From Hadesarchaea archaeon (GTDB lineage: Archaea > Hadarchaeota > Hadarchaeia > Hadarchaeales > Hadarchaeaceae): a DNA stretch of 64,000 bases. Positions 2,067 to 55,655 of this stretch are shown piece after piece (position 1 is the stretch's first letter; each line of letters opens with the position of its first letter). Where the stretch lies: contig JAPDJH010000018.1 of assembly GCA_029259175.1 (NCBI GenBank), positions 5,747 to 69,746 on the forward strand, written 5' to 3'. The position numbers were made by a program, and so were the translations under genes. Under the pieces are notes generated by a model. That model had not been told where the DNA came from, searched no databases, and was given only the letters and a program-made list of their open reading frames with translations.

Positions 2067-3281
2067 ATGCTCTGGACCGAGAAGTACGCGCCCAAGCGCT
2101 TATCCGAACTCGTTGGTCAAGACGCTGCCGTGCAGACTATGCGGAAATGGGTAGAAAGCTGGAAAAAAGGAAAGCCGTCCAAAAAGAGCTTGCTGTTATA
2201 TGGGCCTCCAGGCACGGGAAAAACAGCTGCCACCAGAGCTCTGGCAAACGAGACTGGGTGGCAACTAATAGAGATGAACGCCAGCGACAAGCGAACGATG
2301 AGCGCTCTCAGAAAAATAATAGGAGAGGCTTCGAAAACCGGAACGCTGTTGGAGGGGGTCCAAGGGAAAAAATTACTGGTGCTGGACGAGGCCGACAACA
2401 TTCACGGACGCGCTGATCACGGCGGCTATCAGGCTTTGAAAGAGATCATCGGCACCACTACCAACCCTGTAATTCTAATCGCCAACGACCGGTACTCCAT
2501 TCCCGCCGAGATCCAAGCCCAATGCGAGCTGGTAAATTTCCGGCGGCTCCGTCCCGATCAAATCGTCAAACACTTAGAACACATTGCGAAAAACGAAAAA
2601 ATCAAAGTGGATCGAAAAGCCTTAGAGATCATTGCCCGGCGTTCCGACGGAGATATGCGTTCCGCCATCGAGGACTTTCAGACACACGCTCTTGTGTTTC
2701 CACGTTTGACTGCAGAGCAAGTCCTGTTGTTTAAACGCGAACGTGAGAAAAACGTGTTCGATCTGTTGAGAGGGATCTTGTTCGCCAGCAGCGCCGATGT
2801 TGCGCGTTCTGTGCTCTGGTCAGTGGACATAGCTCCCGACGAAGCAATGGCCTGGATAGTGGAAAACGTGCCAAAAGCCATTAGGGATCCGAAAGCGCTG
2901 GCGGCCGTTTACAACACGCTCTCCAGAGCCGACATCTTCTACAGAAGAGCCAACGAGCGCCAGATTTACCGGCTCTGGTCCTACATGAGCGATCTCATGA
3001 GCGCGGGGGTGGCCGTCAAGAAGGGGAGCGAGGTGAAAGCAGCAAAATTCGAGCCTCCATCGTACCTGAAGCGATACTACCAAACAGCAAAAACCAGAAG
3101 AATGCTAAATTCTGTGGCGAGAAAAATCGCGATGGCGTGCCACACCTCTACTCACCGGGTAAAACAGGATATGATCCCTTTGCTTCCAATCTTGATCCAA
3201 AACAAGAAACTGCTCGAGAATCTGACCGCTAATCTGGAGTTAAGCGAGGAAGAGATCAACTTTCTCTCTTCTCTCCGGTGA
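2067..3281 (+). CDS. rfcL: Replication factor C large subunit
   Basis: MLWTEKYAPKRLSELVGQDAAVQTMRKWVESW...LLLYGPPGTGKTA (Walker A) and LVLDEADN (Walker B): an AAA+ clamp-loader signature. The internal ATG at 2067 matches the canonical N-terminus; the ORF track starts at 1914. Confidence 0.85.
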   Translation: MLWTEKYAPKRLSELVGQDAAVQTMRKWVESWKKGKPSKKSLLLYGPPGTGKTAATRALANETGWQLIEMNASDKRTMSALRKIIGEASKTGTLLEGVQGKKLLVLDEADNIHGRADHGGYQALKEIIGTTTNPVILIANDRYSIPAEIQAQCELVNFRRLRPDQIVKHLEHIAKNEKIKVDRKALEIIARRSDGDMRSAIEDFQTHALVFPRLTAEQVLLFKREREKNVFDLLRGILFASSADVARSVLWSVDIAPDEAMAWIVENVPKAIRDPKALAAVYNTLSRADIFYRRANERQIYRLWSYMSDLMSAGVAVKKGSEVKAAKFEPPSYLKRYYQTAKTRRMLNSVARKIAMACHTSTHRVKQDMIPLLPILIQNKKLLENLTANLELSEEEINFLSSLR

Positions 3282-4363
3282 GCGATGGAATGAGAATCCG
3301 GATCTCGAAAAAACTGGAATACGGCAAGCTTGTCACTCCGCTTCCCGACCGTCATGTCCCCGTCTACCGCTGGTTTCAAATGAAAGAATCTTTCTCGGGA
3401 GCTTTAGTCAAGATGTTGCTGGACTTGTGGGGAAGTCCTGACAAACCGCTCCTCGACCCGTTTTGCGGGGCTGGCACGACTTTGCTCGCATGCAAAGAAA
3501 TGGGCGTCAACGGAATCGGATTGGAAACACATCCGTTTTTGTTGTTTGTATCTAGGGCGAAGACTTGGAACTATGATGTTCCCAGCTTAGAAACGTACTT
3601 GTCCAAAGTCCTAGCCTCCCCCACCAAACGCACAAGTGGAGGTGTGCCTCCATTAGTCAAACGCGTATTTCCCTTGTCGATTCAGCGCGAAATCCTTGCT
3701 ATGAAGGAACCGATCAACGCCATCCCCAACGAAAAAATTCGGGATTTCCTAAAAATGGCGCTGCTCCGGACTGCGGTGCGATGTAGTTGGATGAGAAAAG
3801 ATGGTGCTGTGATCAAAACAGCTGCCCGAAAAATACCCGATTTCCGACACGCGCTAGAGTGTCTGGTCGAAGAGATGGTGAGAGATCTCATGAATTTCCC
3901 GCAGAATGAATCAGCAATTCAGCTAATCCGTGCCGACGCGCGCCACATCCCCCTCAAAGACAACAGCGTGGGAGGCGTTATTACTTCTCCACCGTACCTC
4001 TTCAAGTCGGAGTATTTGCGCGAATTCGTTGTTGAAGAATGGGTTGCAGAAGTCGAACACGCCAGCACCCCATCTGTCATCCACACGGAAGATGTCGAAA
4101 AGTATTTTTCCGACATGGAACGGGTGCTTAGCGAACTCTATCGGGTCTGTGTCCCTGGCGCCAAGCTATGTTTTGTCGTCTCCGATGGCGGAACTCGAAA
4201 GGGGGTGGTAGAAGTCGGTCCTACCTTGTGTGAGGTAGCTCACAATATCGGATTCAAAGCGAAGAAGATGGTTATCGTGAACGAGCGCTGGTGTACCACC
4301 CCTTCAAGAAAAAAAGTGGGAATTCTGCGCGAATCTCTGCTGTTTTGGGAAAAGCCCGCATGA
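3278..4363 (+). CDS. SAM-dependent methyltransferase: motif I (DPFCGAGTT) then motif IV-like (TSPPY), with a large insertion between them
   Basis: KPLLDPFCGAGTTLLA near the N-terminus and GGVITSPPY about 175 aa later. This is the Trm11 / N6-N4 amino-methyltransferase architecture. No THUMP domain and no adjacent nuclease. Confidence 0.6.
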   Translation: MSDGMRIRISKKLEYGKLVTPLPDRHVPVYRWFQMKESFSGALVKMLLDLWGSPDKPLLDPFCGAGTTLLACKEMGVNGIGLETHPFLLFVSRAKTWNYDVPSLETYLSKVLASPTKRTSGGVPPLVKRVFPLSIQREILAMKEPINAIPNEKIRDFLKMALLRTAVRCSWMRKDGAVIKTAARKIPDFRHALECLVEEMVRDLMNFPQNESAIQLIRADARHIPLKDNSVGGVITSPPYLFKSEYLREFVVEEWVAEVEHASTPSVIHTEDVEKYFSDMERVLSELYRVCVPGAKLCFVVSDGGTRKGVVEVGPTLCEVAHNIGFKAKKMVIVNERWCTTPSRKKVGILRESLLFWEKPA

Positions 4364-18454: not shown

Positions 18455-18790
18455 TCACTCGGTATGTTTCTTCACTATCTCCAAAATTTGATTGATTTCA
18501 GAATCCTCCAATCTGGTTCTCGTTTTTTGAAAAATTACTTCTACGTCCTGCTTTGTTTTTGGTAACAAATCGATAATCGCGACGATCTGCGCTTCGTTTA
18601 GTTTCTCGATCTGCGAGAGCTCTTCTCTCATCTTCCTCGCGGTCTCCGCGTCCACACCGGCAAATTTCTGTGCATAATCATATGCTAGCCGTTGAGAGTA
18701 CTCCATCTCCCCTTTCTTTTGTTTTTCTAAAAGCTCCAGCGCCTCTGGAATCGTGGTCGGTTTTTCTTCAACCACCCTTTTTCCGATCAC
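18455..18790 (-). CDS. rpoF: DNA-directed RNA polymerase subunit F (Rpo4/RpoF)
   Basis: About 111 aa, located between L21e and DUF655 as in most archaea. Helical HRDC-like C-terminus. Confidence 0.65.
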   Translation of the reverse strand: MIGKRVVEEKPTTIPEALELLEKQKKGEMEYSQRLAYDYAQKFAGVDAETARKMREELSQIEKLNEAQIVAIIDLLPKTKQDVEVIFQKTRTRLEDSEINQILEIVKKHTE

Positions 18791-19083
18791 TATCTCACCA
18801 CCCGGAGGTGCTCAGGCGATGCTATTATTTTCTTTATCTTACCTCCATCCTTTATCTCTACTATATAGGCACGCCCCCTTTTCTCTATTACGAGACCTAT
18901 CCTCCCATGGTATCTGTGGTGTGGTTGTCCCTTGTGAACCGATGGATTTATGAAAATGGTGACTTTTGCACCTATGGGTAGCTCTTGGGTTGCCTGAACC
19001 ACTGAACCTAGTCCTCGACGTCTCGGCGGTTTTGTGAACTTTCCTCTACCGGCGCTTCTTAGTCCGCGAGACCGTCTAGCCAT
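18790..19083 (-). CDS. rpl21e: 50S ribosomal protein L21e
   Basis: MARRSRGLRSAGRGKFTKPPRRRG...HHRYHGRIG: the L21e signature, 97 aa. Confidence 0.85.
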   Translation of the reverse strand: MARRSRGLRSAGRGKFTKPPRRRGLGSVVQATQELPIGAKVTIFINPSVHKGQPHHRYHGRIGLVIEKRGRAYIVEIKDGGKIKKIIASPEHLRVVR

Positions 19084-19136
19084 TTTTCATCCCTTCCCTC
19101 TCTAGTGTGTCGCGGGATTTTAACCTTTAACTAGCC

Positions 19137-20313
19137 GGTTCTCTTCGGAACTCTTGGCCCGCAGATACTTTCGCCCACCCCTCTCTCCCCGAAACCCTCA
19201 TAATTGGATAGAACGAACCTCGGGCGAATGCGTGTCGTCAAGACCATCCGGGCGGAGCTCTGGGCCCTCACCAAGCGCAAGCTTGAGTGCTTGCTCGATC
19301 TTGAGAGCGAGTGGAGGCGCGCCCTTGAGCTCAAACGCACGTACCGGGAGCTCAGGGAGTCGACGCGCCTGCCCTCCTACTACTGCAGGGCCCTGGCGTG
19401 GAAGGTCCGCGGGCGGCAGTCCCCCATCCTGCTCGACCGGGACTCCTTCGAGCTCAAGCCCACCTCCAACCGCCTAGCCCGCTACTTCATCAGCATTCCC
19501 ACGCCCCGCGGGAGGGTGTGGTGCCCCCTCAGGCTCTGGCGCGAGCACGAGCGGTTGCTCGAGTCGGGAGTCAGGATTAGGGACTCGAAGCTGGTCGTGC
19601 GGAAGGGGAGGTTCTTTCTCCACCTCACGGTTGAAAAGAAAATCACGCTCATCCCTCGACCCAACGTGGTCGCGGTCGACCTCGGAGAGCGCTTCCTCGC
19701 GGCGTCCGTGGCGCTTCGCGGGGGAGCAGTGGTCTCAGCGGTCCTGCTCGGGAAGGAGGCGAGAGGGGTGAGGCGGCACCACGCGTGGCTGCGCAGGCGC
19801 CTGGGGGAGCGGAAGCTCCTGCGCGTCATCAGGCGAATCGGGCAGCGGGAGCGGCGCGCGGTCGACCAGATCTGCCACCGGGTCGCGAAGCGCGTGGTCG
19901 AGTTCGCAGTCCGCCACGAGGCCGTCATCGTGATCGGGGATCTGAAGGGGCTGCGCGAGCGCTGCAGGGGGAAGGGGAAGCGCCTGAATCGCATCGTTGG
20001 CTCCATGCCCTACCACCGGCTCAGGCGCTACATCGAGCACAAAGCGGCTTGGTTTGGGATCCCGGTGTACATAGTGAGCGAGGCGCACACGAGCTCCCGC
20101 TGCCACCGCTGTGGGGCCGAGGGATCGAGGCCCAGCCAGGGGCTCTTCAGGTGCAGGGCATGCGGGCTCGAGTACAACGCGGACCTGAACGGTGCCGCAA
20201 ACCTCGGAAAGAGGTTCCTGGAGCAGCGCTCCGGGAACGGGGCCGTGTGGGTTCCGGCCCTAAAGGCGGCCTAGAGCCGCCAACTTCGGAGGTCAAGGCT
20301 TCCGAAGAGAACC
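19137..20313 (+). mobile_element. TnpB-only insertion element bounded by perfect 14-bp terminal inverted repeats and a 9-bp target-site duplication
   Basis: Left repeat GGTTCTCTTCGGAA (19137-19150) is the exact reverse complement of right repeat TTCCGAAGAGAACC (20300-20313). TAACTAGCC sits immediately outside both ends (19128-19136 and 20314-20322). The interior is about 65% GC against about 52% for the flanks. A subterminal hairpin CTTCGGA-ggtcaaggc-TTCCGAAG lies at 20282-20307. Confidence 0.8.
19204..20274 (+). CDS. tnpB: TnpB (IS200/IS605 OrfB-family RuvC-like RNA-guided nuclease)
   Basis: 356 aa. RuvC-I (VVAVDLGE), RuvC-II (VIVIGDLKGL) and a C-terminal zinc finger with RuvC-III (CHRCGAEGSRPSQGLFRCRACGLEYNADLNGAANL). 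No tnpA in the element. Confidence 0.85.
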   Translation: MDRTNLGRMRVVKTIRAELWALTKRKLECLLDLESEWRRALELKRTYRELRESTRLPSYYCRALAWKVRGRQSPILLDRDSFELKPTSNRLARYFISIPTPRGRVWCPLRLWREHERLLESGVRIRDSKLVVRKGRFFLHLTVEKKITLIPRPNVVAVDLGERFLAASVALRGGAVVSAVLLGKEARGVRRHHAWLRRRLGERKLLRVIRRIGQRERRAVDQICHRVAKRVVEFAVRHEAVIVIGDLKGLRERCRGKGKRLNRIVGSMPYHRLRRYIEHKAAWFGIPVYIVSEAHTSSRCHRCGAEGSRPSQGLFRCRACGLEYNADLNGAANLGKRFLEQRSGNGAVWVPALKAA

Positions 20314-20316
20314 TAA

Positions 20317-21663
20317 CTAGCCCATCTTTTTCAACAATTTGCTCCAAGGACCAAACCTAGGGATTCTGCCTCGTGCAAGATTTTTTATAAGCTTCTGCAC
20401 CAGCTCGTACTGCTTTAAGAGTTCTTTCACGTCGGCTTCGCTGGTCCCAGAACCGCGGGCAATCCTTTTGATCCTAGAAGCATTTAGTATGCGGGGGTTC
20501 TCCAGCTCCTCCGGGGTCATGGACTGCATAATGACCTTGAATTTCTTCAGCTTCTCTTCTCCTATTCGGAACTGCTCGTCGGGAATAGACACGCCCACGC
20601 CCGGAAGCATTTGCATGACTTTTTTCAGAGGACCCATTTTGCTTAATGCTTCTAGCTGATCATAGACATCTTTTAGGGTGAGCTTTCCCGCCAGCAAATC
20701 CTTTTTATCCGGAATCCGGATTTTCTCCTCTTTCACCACTTCCTCGATTTTTTTCAACAGAGTCTCCAAATCGCCCATGCCAAGCAAACGAGACAAGAAC
20801 TTTGCTGGGGCATATGGTTCTAAGTCTTCTAGATGTTCCCCTGTGCCGATGAACTTGATAGATGCGCCCGTCGCGGCCACAGCTGAGAGCGCGCCTCCAC
20901 CTTTGGCAGTGCCGTCGAGTTTGGTTACGAGAATAGATCCGATAGCGGTGGCCGCGTTAAAGGCTTCGGCCTGTGCCTTTGCTTGTTGACCGATGGTGCC
21001 GTCAATCACCAGCATTACTTCGTCTGGTCGGATTTGCTCCGCTAACTCTCGCATTTCCTGCATGAGATTTATCTCGCTTTTATGACGCCCTGCCGTGTCG
21101 ACGATAATGAGCTCCATTCCTTGTCTCTTGAAATGTTGCACGCCTTCCTTTGCTATTCTAACGGCGTCTTTGGTTTTGGGGTCTCCGAAAACTGGGAATC
21201 CCCCTTGCTCTCCCAGCTGAAGCAATTGTTCGTAAGCGCCCGGACGATACGTGTCGGCACAGATAATCCCCACCTTGAAGCCCTTTTTCTTGAAATAATA
21301 CGCGAGCTTGGCCACCGAAGTGGTTTTCCCACTTCCCTGCAAACCAACCATCATCAAAACTTTGGTTTTCCCCGGCTCCACTTTCAGCTCCGCGGGTTTG
21401 CCCAAAAAATCTGAGAGCTCTTCATACACCACCTTTATTATGTGGGCTCGCTTGTCTACTCCCGGCAACGGCTTTTCTTCGAGCGCTCGCTTTTCGATGC
21501 GTTTGGAAAGAGAAAGCACTAGTTTAACGTTGACATCAGCTTGGAGCAGAGCGCGCTGGACATCTCTAACGAGCTGCTTGATCGTTTGCTCGTCCACATG
21601 CGGGCTTTTCGCCAGCTTCTGGAGAGCAGAGTGTAGCGCCTTTCCCAGTCTTTCTAGCACCAT
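20317..21663 (-). CDS. srp54: Signal recognition particle protein SRP54
   Basis: N domain, G domain (GLQGSGKTTS, DTAGR) and a Met-rich M domain (MMQSMTPEELENP). Confidence 0.9.
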   Translation of the reverse strand: MVLERLGKALHSALQKLAKSPHVDEQTIKQLVRDVQRALLQADVNVKLVLSLSKRIEKRALEEKPLPGVDKRAHIIKVVYEELSDFLGKPAELKVEPGKTKVLMMVGLQGSGKTTSVAKLAYYFKKKGFKVGIICADTYRPGAYEQLLQLGEQGGFPVFGDPKTKDAVRIAKEGVQHFKRQGMELIIVDTAGRHKSEINLMQEMRELAEQIRPDEVMLVIDGTIGQQAKAQAEAFNAATAIGSILVTKLDGTAKGGGALSAVAATGASIKFIGTGEHLEDLEPYAPAKFLSRLLGMGDLETLLKKIEEVVKEEKIRIPDKKDLLAGKLTLKDVYDQLEALSKMGPLKKVMQMLPGVGVSIPDEQFRIGEEKLKKFKVIMQSMTPEELENPRILNASRIKRIARGSGTSEADVKELLKQYELVQKLIKNLARGRIPRFGPWSKLLKKMG

Positions 21664-38704: not shown

Positions 38705-39506
38705 GAAAGAGCCCCAACTTAGGGAACCGTCCAAAGAATGGCCCCACTACGAGTTGTGGATGAGAACCAGAAATTTGCTAAAAGAATTGCCTACGTATTT
38801 TAAAAGCACATTGAATATAACATCTGCCGTTAATGTAACTGAAATATATGCCTTCGGCACAGCTCTTAGCTATACGATTGAGGAAGAGGTTGTGAACACT
38901 CTCAACAAGGAAAAAGAACTGCTAGATCCTGATGGAAAATATTGTGAATACTCCTTTACTAGACAGGCACAATCATTCCCCGATGTGTTATTTCTAAATT
39001 CAGAAAAAGGTGACATAATAATGGGAATAGAGCTAAAATCGTGGTATCTCTTGGCGAAAGAGGGTGAACCGAGTTTTCGTTATAAAGTCACGCCTAGCGC
39101 GTGCGCCTTACAAGACTTGTTAGTTGTGGTACCTTGGGCCCTATCCAACGTGGTAACCGGGAATCCTATAGTTTTTGAACCATTCGTAATATCTGCTAGA
39201 TATGCGGCGGAATATCGAAATTATTGGTGGAAGCACTTGAGAAAGGCAGAGGGCAACACGGATATTTCCTCGCCCGACGGAGTCAGTTCTTATCCTTCTA
39301 GCCGTGAAAGGATAGACGATGAACCTGCTTATGATCCTGGTAGAAACTTTGGAAGATTAGCAAGGACAGAAATTATGGATAAATGGGTAAAGAGATGTAA
39401 AAAGGAAAAACTACTCGGAATAGAGATAGAAAAATGGATTGAATTCTTCAAAACGGGTAAAATCAGACATAAGGAAATTTGTGAAAAACGGCTGAAGTCA
39501 TCATAG
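38697..39506 (+). CDS. PD-(D/E)XK restriction endonuclease candidate
   Basis: FPDVLFLNSEKGDIIMGIELKSWY carries PD...(E)LK. Translationally coupled to the methyltransferase. AT-rich. Confidence 0.55.
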   Translation: MSEKEPQLREPSKEWPHYELWMRTRNLLKELPTYFKSTLNITSAVNVTEIYAFGTALSYTIEEEVVNTLNKEKELLDPDGKYCEYSFTRQAQSFPDVLFLNSEKGDIIMGIELKSWYLLAKEGEPSFRYKVTPSACALQDLLVVVPWALSNVVTGNPIVFEPFVISARYAAEYRNYWWKHLRKAEGNTDISSPDGVSSYPSSRERIDDEPAYDPGRNFGRLARTEIMDKWVKRCKKEKLLGIEIEKWIEFFKTGKIRHKEICEKRLKSS

Positions 39507-39515
39507 CACCTGCTC

Positions 39516-40961
39516 TTAGGGGCCCCCTGTTTCAGTCTCCTTTGTCCAACATTGTACTTTCATGACAATTAGGACAAGAATTATGCTAGCGATTGAGAGG
39601 ATAGATATCGAAGGACCAATTATGAAACCAATCCCACCATAAAAAAATATGAAAAATAAGCCGATCAACCCGGATGTACTCACCACGCCGATCATATTAC
39701 GGAACTGTCTATTTTCCATAAATTGTATCCCGCAGATACAACATCTAATTCCTCTTTCGGCAAAAAATATCAAAGACATCATAACAAAGATTGCCCAAAT
39801 ATTTTTGTCCAAGTTTTGTAGAAGAGCCAAAATTATATAAAGACCAGAAGTGATGGTTGCAACATAAATAAAAGTGAGAATGCCTAGAAGAGCGGAAGAT
39901 ATAGATTTTGATGTAAGTTTATACTGAAAAATTTGCAAGATTGCGCGCTTTGCTGTTTCCTTTTCTTTTGGGAAGAAAATTGATAAAACCACATAAAAGA
40001 GAAGTAAAAATACAAACCAAACCAAAATGTTAGTGATGAGGACCTTGAAAGACGATAAGAAAGTAAACTCGCTTAGAAAAACATTTTCGTAACTCGTTTT
40101 ACCTGCGGTTACTTTAACTACCTTCTCGGCTCGATATCCAATCATTCCCCCCGATTCAATGATTATTTTGTATTCGCCTTCACCCAGATTGAAAACGCAC
40201 GCACCGTTCTCATCAGTCAAGAATGGTGCCGAACTCCGCGTTCTCACCACACGTACTCGTGCGTTTGGCACAGGTTCGTTTTCCTTTCTAACACTGATGA
40301 TTAACTTGCCGGTTCTCTTTACGTACCGAGTGGTAACATCATGTGCTGTGCCAGAGTCGTCAACGGCGTATACGAAAAAGAGTTGTTCTCCTCCTCCATT
40401 TTCATTCTCTGGACGCTCGTAAAATGCAGGATCGTTAATAATGCCTCTCTTCCCAGTTGCTGGATTAGTTTTGCTTGGGTCAACATGTATCCAATCTCCA
40501 TTAATTTTTACCTCAGCCCAAGCATGATCCAGACCCAAATTGTACACAACCCGGGCATTATCTATGCCTGCTGTTTTTGCCAATTCTACGAACAGCCTTG
40601 CAAACTCTTCACATGCGCCGTGTTTGAAGAACATTATCCATTGTGGATGCATAAGTCGAAGGTACGTGACAGGGATCCTATCTAATAGAAAATATAGCGG
40701 CGGTATGGAGCTATGCGGACGCTTGTAAATGATTTTCCCCTCAAAATTTCTATCCTCCCACTCAATAATCGCATTGATAATGGACAAATGATTCGAATTC
40801 TTGCTACCGATTTCAGTCCCGACTTTTTGTATTTCCGCCTCTCCCAATATTTGGACGACAAAGTAGGGAAGCCAGAAGGTAGATAGAACGGTTAGTAATA
40901 GAAGCGCTGTCGCTAGATAGGTCTTGAACTTTTTCCACTTTCTTTCTGTGTTTGATGGCAT
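39516..40961 (-). CDS. Membrane-anchored transglutaminase-like cysteine protease-fold protein
   Basis: GACEEFARLFVELAKTAGI...DHAWAEV...GDWIHVDPS is a Cys-His-Asp transglutaminase-like core. An N-terminal TM, a beta-sandwich region, then more than six TM helices. Confidence 0.6.
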   Translation of the reverse strand: MPSNTERKWKKFKTYLATALLLLTVLSTFWLPYFVVQILGEAEIQKVGTEIGSKNSNHLSIINAIIEWEDRNFEGKIIYKRPHSSIPPLYFLLDRIPVTYLRLMHPQWIMFFKHGACEEFARLFVELAKTAGIDNARVVYNLGLDHAWAEVKINGDWIHVDPSKTNPATGKRGIINDPAFYERPENENGGGEQLFFVYAVDDSGTAHDVTTRYVKRTGKLIISVRKENEPVPNARVRVVRTRSSAPFLTDENGACVFNLGEGEYKIIIESGGMIGYRAEKVVKVTAGKTSYENVFLSEFTFLSSFKVLITNILVWFVFLLLFYVVLSIFFPKEKETAKRAILQIFQYKLTSKSISSALLGILTFIYVATITSGLYIILALLQNLDKNIWAIFVMMSLIFFAERGIRCCICGIQFMENRQFRNMIGVVSTSGLIGLFFIFFYGGIGFIIGPSISILSIASIILVLIVMKVQCWTKETETGGP

Positions 40962-41157: not shown

Positions 41158-41291
41158 TGGTGGGGCCGCCAGGATTTGAACCCGGGTTTGCGGGTCTCAC
41201 CGCGCCAGTGGGTCATCATCTCCACATCAGCAGACCCACAATCTCTCGGCCCACTGGAGCCCGCCGTGATACCAGGCTACACTACGGCCCC
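41158..41291 (-). tRNA. trnW: tRNA-Trp(CCA) with a 58-nt intron and encoded CCA
   Basis: Reverse complement reads GGGGCCG...GCGGG-CTCCAG[intron]A-CCCGC...CCGGGTTCAAATCCTGG-CGGCCCC-A-CCA. The acceptor pairs 7/7, the T-loop is TTCAAAT, and the anticodon is CCA. The intron (41196-41253) sits at the canonical 37/38 position. Confidence 0.85.
41196..41253 (-). ncRNA. tRNA-Trp intron carrying box C/D-like motifs
   Basis: The intron contains CUGA and AUGAUGA (41213-41219) flanked by a GUGGG/CCCAC stem, resembling the box C/D guide found in archaeal tRNA-Trp introns. Confidence 0.5.
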
Positions 41292-55582: not shown

Positions 55583-55655
55583 GGCCGTGTGAGTTCCGGC
55601 CCTAGAAACAGCCTGGAACTGCCAACTTCGGAGGTCAAGACTTCCGAAGAGAGCC
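55583..55655 (+). repeat. Solo copy of the TnpB element right end (tnpB 3' terminus, hairpin and terminal repeat)
   Basis: ggccgtgtgAgttccggccctaGaAAcAgccTGGAActgccaacttcggaggtcaagActtccgaagagaGcc aligns to 20241-20313, about 85% identity, with the hairpin conserved. No adjacent tnpB or left end. Confidence 0.75.

Follow-up and report, generated by a model that had tools for sequence, protein, structure and literature searches.

A solo archaeal tnpB between inverted repeats and a 9-bp target-site duplication: a probable non-autonomous transposon carrying TnpB and a predicted guide RNA

How does a tnpB gene with no transposase of its own come to lie between exact inverted repeats and a direct repeat? 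The question is raised by a locus in a Hadesarchaea archaeon (GenBank assembly GCA_029259175.1), analyzed here within a stretch of 64,000 nucleotides of contig JAPDJH010000018.1 (positions 5,747 to 69,746), referred to below as the window. TnpB-only elements are stated to lack inverted repeats and target-site duplications (TSDs) (PMC3627910, PMC3119063, PMC13565253). The element at this locus spans positions 19137 to 20313 of the window (1,177 bp) and has a GC content of 65.9%, against 50.9% in the rest of the window. The list of open reading frames (ORFs) places a single gene within it, tnpB (348 amino acids, 19228 to 20274, plus strand), and no transposase gene. The evidence presented below indicates that the element is probably a non-autonomous terminal inverted repeat (TIR) transposon whose only cargo is a TnpB, active-looking by prediction, and its guide RNA (omegaRNA).

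The left end of the element begins with the repeat GGTTCTCTTCGGAA (19137 to 19150, plus strand), the exact reverse complement of which occupies positions 20300 to 20313. This bears out the initial annotation of this DNA, which had described exact 14-bp TIRs around a lone tnpB. The match can be extended to 23 nucleotides with three mismatches (20 of 23 positions), so that the left repeat covers 19137 to 19159 on the plus strand and the right repeat 20291 to 20313 on the minus strand. Directly outside both, with no gap, lie the two copies of the direct repeat TAACTAGCC (19128 to 19136 and 20314 to 20322, neither with a strand assignment). This 9-mer occurs exactly twice in the window, where 0.16 occurrences are expected by chance. 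A window-wide scan for inverted repeats of at least 11 nucleotides flanked by direct repeats of 3 nucleotides or more returned three pairs; two of these have 3-nucleotide flanks only, so the TAACTAGCC pair alone exceeds that length. Elsewhere in the window, positions 40301 to 40319 (TTAACTTGCCGGTTCTCTT) agree at 18 of 19 positions with the left junction, which consists of the duplication and the start of the repeat (BLAST E = 0.07). Similarity does not extend further out, and the match is probably due to chance.

Whether the 9-mers are a true TSD was decided by allele contigs from other samples, retrieved by exact-protein look-up of the neighboring genes. Two of them, L095 (ENA ERZ584659) and L096 (ENA ERZ27227321), carry the empty site ...AAAAAGATGGGCTAGTTA|AAGGTTAAAATCCCGCGACACACTAGAGAGGGGAGGGATGAAAAATGGCT... 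(in shorter form AAAAAGATGGGCTAGTTA|AAGGTTAAAATCCCG). The element is absent there, GGCTAGTTA (which is TAACTAGCC in reverse complement) occurs once, and SRP54 runs directly into the L21e leader. Their flanks are those of the window except for one single-nucleotide polymorphism (SNP). The filled allele, with the element and a second 9-mer between the same flanks bar one SNP, is present in the window and in at least seven other assemblies. Since the empty allele has one 9-mer and the filled allele two, the inserted DNA is exactly 19137 to 20313, and the 9-mer was duplicated on insertion; the empty-site junction thereby confirms the right end of the element at 20313. The initial annotation had proposed both the duplication and a look at the SRP54/L21e region of related strains for an unoccupied allele, and L095 and L096 provide that allele. 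It had also taken the high GC content as a sign of recent arrival. The insertion between SRP54 and L21e is indeed recent, being polymorphic among near-identical strains. In a related species, the SRP54 of which is 81% identical, SRP54 and L21e are adjacent, with a 39-nucleotide spacer and no tnpB.

Duplications of the same length are found in a second Hadesarchaea metagenome-assembled genome, JAPDJF01. One family is present there in four copies, which occupy different sites, and a perfect 9-bp duplication flanks every one of them. Locus L002 (1,155 bp, duplication ATCTGTACT) is intact, L063 (1,130 bp, CTTTCCCTT) has a disrupted gene, and L072 (437 bp, 2947 to 3383, AAACTTTGG) and L076 (589 bp, 2947 to 3535, AGAGACCTC) have internal deletions. 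Across the window and the four JAPDJF01 sites, the duplication is thus fixed in length at 9 bp and variable in sequence. Both deleted copies keep the left end and approximately 250 nucleotides of the right end, which comprise the whole predicted RNA scaffold, and they may be satellites that encode RNA only and rely on the TnpB of intact copies. Directly 5' of the left duplication stand TTTC, TTTG, TTTC, and TTTC in L002, L063, L072, and L076, respectively, and the right duplication is followed by T(C/T)C or TCA. The target motif in JAPDJF01 is asymmetric, non-palindromic, and similar to a target-adjacent motif (TAM), and all four copies are inserted in one orientation with respect to it.

These duplications bear directly on two conventional explanations. 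The first takes the database annotation of the protein, IS200/IS605 TnpB, at face value and supposes that a classical Y1 TnpA (IS200/IS605) or a serine recombinase (IS607) moved the element, the repeats being coincidental or preexisting. Transposition by Y1 enzymes and serine recombinases produces no duplication and no inverted repeats (PMC4810608, PMC6188088, PMC13565253), whereas the 9-mer is present once in the empty allele and twice in the filled one, which refutes this route for the insertion in the window; the four further perfect duplications in JAPDJF01 argue in the same direction, and the explanation as a whole is exceedingly improbable. In the second, a tyrosine recombinase would have integrated the element site-specifically, and the 9-mer would be a shared att core. 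TnpBs associated with such enzymes exist, but those linked to them are reported to be inactivated (PMC10691335), whereas the TnpB of the window keeps its catalytic residues. The 9-mers moreover differ at each insertion, even among the JAPDJF01 copies that are 90 to 99% identical, and a shared core is hardly credible.

The architecture of the window element was compared with that of related loci, comprising 80 genome loci together with L082 to L084, at each of which ends were located de novo. Nucleotide BLAST of the left and right ends of the element against the 80 genome loci retrieved no shared end sequences. A blind scan for inverted repeats gave a score of at least 11 in 12 of 32 full-length relatives, compared with 4.6% of cross-locus control pairings. 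Solo-tnpB elements with inverted ends occur in Hadarchaeota, Micrarchaeota, Thaumarchaeota, and others, down to approximately 31% protein identity (L062). Their ends begin with GG(C/T)T and fall into the types GGTTC... (the window; L082, with a TnpB 59% identical; and L005), (N)GCTTTGCACA... (L002, L025, L031, L033, and L062), and GGCTTTGTAGAA... (L055); the sequence TACTTTCGCCCACCCC is common to the left ends of the window element and of the relative L107. In a rough neighbor-joining tree, the elements with inverted ends make up two neighboring branches, and L010 and L014, which adjoin Y1 genes, are placed elsewhere together with the relatives that have no inverted ends. Flanking 9-mers match at eight of nine positions in L025, L031, and L033, and L004 has a repeat of 8 to 9 nucleotides. 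T-rich tetramers are found at the same upstream place in these loci as well, namely, TTTT (L033 and L004), TATT (L025), and TTAG (L031). The architecture of a solo tnpB, inverted ends starting with GG(C/T)T, and a duplication of about 9 bp is a property of an archaeal TnpB clade.

Some of the loci are less regular. At P0004/L083, P0010/L107, P0012/L108, and P0007/L109, all close relatives, the inverted ends are unclear or degenerate, and no clean duplications were found. P0073, found on 12 contigs, was considered as a multicopy element and ruled out, being one locus in many samples. L031 (“Candidatus Fermentimicrarchaeum limneticum,” CP058998) contains at positions 630 to 700 a solo left-end copy (GCTTTGCACATAAATTCACCTTTCACTGGAAAGTTACCC...), upstream of an unannotated 196-amino-acid ORF and a RadA gene and 2.3 kb from the full element with which it shares the left end. 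Since this left-end-like sequence at position 630 stands alone ahead of RadA, it was ruled out as an autonomous partner.

The right end of the element carries the second line of evidence, a predicted RNA structure in which the inverted repeat itself takes part. Positions 20140 to 20313 fold much better than shuffled controls (z = −4.07). Stem 1 (GTTCCTGGAGC-AGC-GCTCCGGGAAC, 20214 to 20238, plus strand) lies within the 3' coding region of tnpB and shows compensatory changes in 8 of its 10 pairs (RNAalifold, 12 relatives). It is followed on the same strand by hairpin 2 (GGGCCG-TGTGGGTTC-CGGCCC, 20240 to 20260), which in the relatives is conserved as a GGGC..loop..GCCC stem with covarying inner pairs. 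Folding places hairpin 3 (GGCGGC-CTAGA-GCCGCC) at 20265 to 20281, plus strand, with the tnpB stop codon (20272 to 20274) in its loop. Hairpin 4 (CTTCGGA...TCCGAAG, 20284 to 20307, plus strand) is predicted from sequence and folding, and its 3' arm is inside the right inverted repeat. The initial annotation had noticed this last hairpin and its overlap with the terminal repeat, and had expected a guide-RNA scaffold at the 3' end of tnpB and the right end of the element; the covariation in relatives now supports a structured, multihairpin scaffold of this kind as a prediction. No Rfam family was found for the right-end RNA, either in this region at E ≤ 1 or in the whole window at gathering thresholds. 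In Logan assemblies from three runs, contigs break inside the right end of the element (contig ends of L087, L088, and L089; contig starts of L093 and L094), losing positions 20240 to 20285, which hold the GC-rich hairpins 2 and 3. These breaks may reflect heterogeneity in the population, a repeat, or hairpins that are poorly covered.

The loop of hairpin 2, GGTTC (20250 to 20254), is complementary to the last five nucleotides of the element, GAACC (20309 to 20313), which predicts a pseudoknot. Of 11 elements with inverted ends, 10 have a loop and a terminus that match at all five positions, through four covarying pentamer types: GGTTC:GAACC (the window, L082, L005, and L007), GCTTT:AAAGC (L002, L025, L031, and L062), GTACT:AGTAC (L004), and GGCTC:GAGCC (L055). 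A guide-adjacent pseudoknot is known in prokaryotic TnpB RNAs (PMC10711439, PMC13565253). Because the pseudoknot uses the last base of the element, the boundary between scaffold and guide would lie there, which makes the duplicated 9-mer, from 20314 onward, the predicted start of the guide. On the pseudoknot position and the known layout of TnpB omegaRNAs (PMC10711439), the predicted guide segment is TAACTAGCCCATCTTTTTCA (20314 to 20333, plus strand), which opens with the 9-mer and the length of which, about 20 nucleotides, is assumed. Since the loop pairs with the outer tip of the repeat, this tip would have a role at the DNA level and another at the RNA level.

A related right end was found at 55583 to 55655 of the window (plus strand). 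This solo, degraded copy comprises hairpins 2 to 4 and the repeat, ends with GGCTCTCTTCGGAA in reverse complement, and has a small ORF on one side and a radical-SAM-like gene on the other. Over 74 nucleotides (about 110 nucleotides with gaps), its identity is 86%, and the similarity stops at the right terminus, one base past 20313 (20241 to 20314 aligned). A search at that locus found no tnpB, left end, or flanking duplication. The predicted pseudoknot is broken in this copy (AGTTC versus GAGCC), and hairpin 3 retains one pair through a double change from G:C to A:T. This copy is what is left of an earlier, related insertion.

These observations meet the idea that the locus combines two elements, an IS200/IS605-type tnpB module having recently landed in, or been captured by, an unrelated miniature inverted-repeat transposable element (MITE) to which alone the ends and the duplication would belong. 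In its favor, more distant relatives of the same family adjoin Y1 TnpA genes (L010, L014, L019, and L054). However, the pseudoknot uses the last five nucleotides of the inverted repeat and covaries with the repeat in the four classes, which largely refutes a recent meeting of the two parts. The same geometry is also found in relatives down to the approximately 31% protein identity of L062, and the 55.6-kb remnant runs from the 3' end of tnpB straight into the repeat. Taken together, the covariation, the shared geometry, and the remnant mean that any capture by a MITE must be ancient, at which point this explanation merges with that of a non-autonomous TIR transposon; as a separate event of recent date it is very unlikely. 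The extension of the pentamer covariation across a whole TnpB clade likewise makes the ends and the nuclease module an old, co-evolving unit and not a chance capture. The description in the initial annotation of a MITE-like vehicle with a nuclease as passenger is for this reason misleading, the outer five nucleotides of the repeat being the pseudoknot partner that covaries across the clade.

The protein encoded by the element was assigned by Pfam (PF07282, E = 1e-19) and by 278 homologues named TnpB or IS605 OrfB, the best of which are 59 to 62% identical. Its PDB matches are TnpB and Cas12f chains, with which the RuvC and zinc-finger residues align. In an alignment of 30 relatives, D151 of RuvC-I, D319 of RuvC-III (NADLN), and the four zinc-finger cysteines C292, C295, C309, and C312 are invariant. 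The canonical glutamate of RuvC-II is replaced in the same alignment by an invariant glycine, G237 (IG237DL), and an alternative invariant glutamate, E285, is situated six residues ahead of the first CxxC (ExxxxxxCxxC). TnpBs with a rearranged, glycine-substituted RuvC-II have been described as “RIIr” (PMC10691335), and the window TnpB has this arrangement. It also fits the regular expression D{P}G...ExxxxxxCxxC...CxxC...D, which with its shifted glutamate defines Fanzor-like TnpBs (PMC10711439). As the catalytic and zinc-finger residues are kept together with the rearranged RuvC-II, the protein appears intact and is predicted to be an active enzyme. Upstream of the gene, the left end of the element is noncoding over 91 nucleotides (19137 to 19227, plus strand). 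It includes a TATA-like ATAATT (19200 to 19205), about 26 nucleotides before the tnpB ATG, that would fit a leaderless tnpB mRNA. One homologue, P0105 (480 amino acids, 43% identical), has Y1_Tnp (PF01797) and TnpB domains in one predicted protein; it represents either a fusion of TnpA and TnpB or two genes of a classical IS605 relative that were merged in gene calling.

How such a unit would move and persist can be proposed from its parts. With no transposase inside the element, mobilization in trans suggests itself naturally. A transposase supplied in trans would probably bind the inverted repeats and make staggered cuts 9 bp apart in the target. This enzyme would most likely be of the DDE type, with IS5/IS903-like or IS256-like enzymes as candidates by duplication length and end sequence; IS256/MuDR-type enzymes give duplications of 8 to 9 bp. 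The omegaRNA guide would start at the first flanking base and consist of the duplicated 9-mer and the downstream flank. Since the 9-mer of an empty allele is directly preceded by the upstream motif, TnpB with its RNA could recognize unoccupied copies (TAM, 9-mer, and downstream flank) and would cut them, and recombination with the occupied chromosome copy would then restore or spread the element. At an occupied site the repeat separates the TAM from the target, which would protect that site from cutting. In this way the homing logic of IS605 TnpBs would be carried over to a transposon that makes duplications.

Several results weigh against this proposal. The search for a partner covered the window, the flanks of the related loci, and viral and JGI contigs, a scope that applies to every negative on transposases given here. 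No transposase with matching ends was found in the 64-kb window, and no partner transposase within approximately 3 kb of tnpB in the related loci. A scan for the end pattern yielded two matches in viral contigs and three in JGI metagenome contigs, all of them due to chance (no extended similarity and no tnpB). The window element is apparently single copy, and the tetramer upstream of its left duplication is CCTT, not TTTC/G, so the idea of a TAM rests on the relatives. L005, L007, L055, and L062 have inverted ends and no recognizable duplication. Finally, it is unusual for a DDE transposase to have a non-palindromic target motif with the element locked in one orientation. A protein-based scan of viral contigs returned no relatives, and no serine recombinase was found in the element or beside the related loci. 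Clusters of recurrent neighboring ORFs across the related loci consist of the Y1 TnpA at the four distant relatives (L010, L014, L019, and L054), all four of them outside the branches with inverted ends, and otherwise of housekeeping genes. The initial annotation had postulated cut-and-paste mobilization of the DDE type in trans; part of this stands, since Y1 and serine enzymes are excluded and there is no internal transposase, but the window, the related loci, and the viral and JGI scans yielded no DDE transposase whose ends match. The terms “DDE-type” and “cut-and-paste” are thus what we infer.

The fixed orientation to TTTC/G admits several possible causes, namely, survival of only TAM-linked insertions, an oriented integrase, or a role of TnpB in target choice, and the latter two lead to explanations of their own. 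In one, the element would be self-mobilizing, with TnpB, an RNase-H-fold RuvC enzyme, as the transposase, perhaps aided by RNA in recognizing the ends, and with the inverted ends and the 9-bp duplication as its own signature. The lack of a partner beside the related loci, in several archaeal phyla, is what this would predict, although absence from flanks of approximately 7 kb is weak evidence, as non-autonomous elements need not adjoin their transposase. The terminal five nucleotides of both ends match or complement the RNA loop and covary with the TnpB lineage, which is easiest to understand if the factor that recognizes the ends is encoded by the element. TTTC/G is placed next to the duplication in the orientation of a TAM, and intact copies could serve the deletion derivatives in trans. 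However, no TnpB is known to transpose DNA, and the work on ISDra2 places TnpB cleavage about 15 to 21 bp from the TAM, not 9. TnpB is also dispensable for the transposition of IS608 and ISDra2 (PMC3627910). A self-mobilizing element is accordingly unlikely, and equally so the specific form in which TnpB-omegaRNA, or TnpB with a host factor, would recognize both ends as well as the TTTC/G TAM and place the insertion 9 bp downstream of this motif. In a weaker variant, TAM recognition by TnpB may steer an unrelated transposase to TAM-adjacent targets in fixed orientation. Were the self-mobilizing explanation true, TnpB would be an RNA-assisted transposase in this archaeal clade.

The other explanation assigns the trans activity to a Cas1-type, casposase-like integrase or another oriented integrase that reads a short leader motif and makes a duplication of ruler-measured length. 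The asymmetric, orientation-locked target (TTTC/G-N9) fits such an enzyme. The family 1 casposase requires a leader-end TTT and yields inverted ends and duplications, but the known casposases give duplications of 13 to 15 bp at one specific site and not of 9 bp at many (PMC8464041). Repeat-flanked associations of Cas1 and TnpB have been reported in Asgard archaea (PMC10691335); no Cas1 gene was found near any of the related loci examined here. An integrase of this type is quite unlikely, and a non-autonomous TIR transposon moved in trans, most likely by a DDE enzyme, remains the probable explanation.

For this type of transposon there are precedents, although the initial annotation had treated a TnpB with inverted repeats and a duplication as unheard of. 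That view is outdated, such TnpBs having been reported in 2023: Altae-Tran et al. (PNAS, PMC10691335) described six TnpB branches associated with DDE transposases, all with inverted terminal repeats, together with solo TnpBs that share these ends and are presumably mobilized in trans. TnpBs within DDE transposons that have inverted repeats are therefore already in the literature, and the window element is a new, well-documented, archaeal example. Its clade may be one of the six branches. As in those branches, TnpB lies between inverted repeats, the 3' end of tnpB is less than 250 bp from the end of the element, and the guide is read from the flank. The differences are that no DDE gene was found in cis in the relatives examined here, that the hosts are archaea (Hadarchaeota and others), and that the duplication is 9 bp. 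The ISL2, IS630, and IS1031 groups make duplications of 2 to 3 bp or TA. These are the groups named as DDE partners of TnpB in a 2026 review (PMC13565253).

A further close parallel in organization is with the Fanzors of eukaryotes, which are commonly found in non-autonomous TIR/TSD transposons, some with 9-bp TSDs, and with the repeat inside the RNA scaffold (PMC3627910, PMC10711439). Fanzor1 and Fanzor2* elements of eukaryotes and viruses (Bao & Jurka 2013, PMC3627910; Yoon et al. 2023, PMC10711439) resemble the window element in being nuclease-only and non-autonomous, with inverted ends and duplications that include MuDR-like 9-bp TSDs. In both, the repeat is part of the guide-RNA scaffold, by prediction in the window, and the catalytic glutamate is shifted to six residues ahead of the zinc finger (ExxxxxxCxxC). 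In contrast to Fanzors, the window element has an archaeal host (Hadarchaeota) and a small protein (348 amino acids), and it keeps the pseudoknot, which is lost in Fanzor1. Its 9-mer is variable, and so is not a fixed part of the scaffold but the predicted start of the guide. The window element thus works like Fanzor elements but is not one, as its host is an archaeon.

Among the prokaryotic classes, the window element looks like the IS1341 type, the tnpB-only form of IS200/IS605, in its lone tnpB of approximately 350 amino acids, its length of about 1.2 kb, a predicted omegaRNA over the 3' end of the gene, and its database annotation. That type, however, is defined by having neither inverted repeats nor target duplications, and the window element has both. 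IS200/IS605 elements, which insert 3' of a target of 4 to 5 nucleotides, differ from it by their Y1 (HUH) TnpA, genes for which are found beside distant relatives only, and IS607 by its serine recombinase, the window element having instead inverted repeats and a duplication. IS903, a member of the IS5 family, makes a 9-bp duplication. Its repeat start, GGCTTTGTTGAATAAATC, was verified in Escherichia coli, where an element with an IS5/IS1182-family transposase ends in this sequence. The ends of the relatives L055 (GGCTTTGTAGAAATATTT, 13 of 18 positions) and L025 (G+GCTTTGCACATAAATTC) resemble it, whereas the window repeat GGTTCTCTTCGGAA matches weakly (about 7 of 18); the window repeat begins with GGTTC and the relatives with (G)GCTTTG or GGCTTTG, and similarity between such short repeats is not diagnostic. 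No IS5-type transposase was found in the window, in the flanks of the related loci, or in the viral and JGI contig scans. The resemblance to IS903 is a lead and not a demonstrated relationship.

SRP54 (20317 to 21663, minus strand) ends with a stop codon (20317 to 20319) that lies inside the right 9-mer, and L21e (18790 to 19083, minus strand) is followed by Rpb4/RpoF and DUF655. Both neighbors were spared by the insertion, the duplicated 9-mer providing the SRP54 stop and the TATA-like GGTTAAAA leader of L21e being intact. The initial annotation had named these neighbors correctly and given the gap to the SRP54 stop as 4 nucleotides; it is 3. The SRP54 homologues that carry organism names are all from Hadesarchaea or Hadarchaeota (69 to 72% identity), in agreement with a host from this phylum. 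Public gene calls for L21e are 70 amino acids long in several assemblies and 97 in others (L085, L090, and L094 versus L095 to L097 and L111). The 97-amino-acid ORF starting at 19083 matches Pfam profile positions 2 to 98 of 101, and the 70-amino-acid calls look like start-codon miscalls. Farther away in the window, an Rfam tRNA match spreads over 131 nucleotides (41161 to 41291, minus strand, 49.6 bits) where ARAGORN in default mode reports none, and is probably an intron-containing archaeal tRNA. The lowest GC content of the window, 0.33 to 0.39 against a mean of 0.51, occurs at 39300 to 40000.

What the locus adds to the published DDE-linked TnpBs is an archaeal clade with no transposase in cis at the loci examined, together with direct proof from an empty site. 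It further adds a multicopy family with MITE-like derivatives that keep the predicted RNA scaffold, a covarying overlap between the tip of the repeat and the predicted pseudoknot, and a TAM-like motif that abuts the duplication. Filled and empty alleles in near-identical archaeal strains make a clean natural experiment against the rule, given in reviews, that such elements have no repeats and no duplication. Two ideas that arise are directly testable: that a 5-nucleotide sequence may be both the tip recognized by the transposase and the partner in an RNA pseudoknot, and that the TAM may sit right upstream of the duplicated target, so that homing to empty sites would still work. The exact right-end boundary and the predicted guide start should make the compact, 348-amino-acid nuclease and its RNA easy to reconstitute. 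The element is a prokaryotic, archaeal counterpart of the Fanzor arrangement, with the TIR/TSD ride and the shifted catalytic glutamate, and with the predicted prokaryotic pseudoknot retained, and as such it bears on how RNA-guided nucleases moved from elements of Y1 enzymes and serine recombinases to cut-and-paste transposons.

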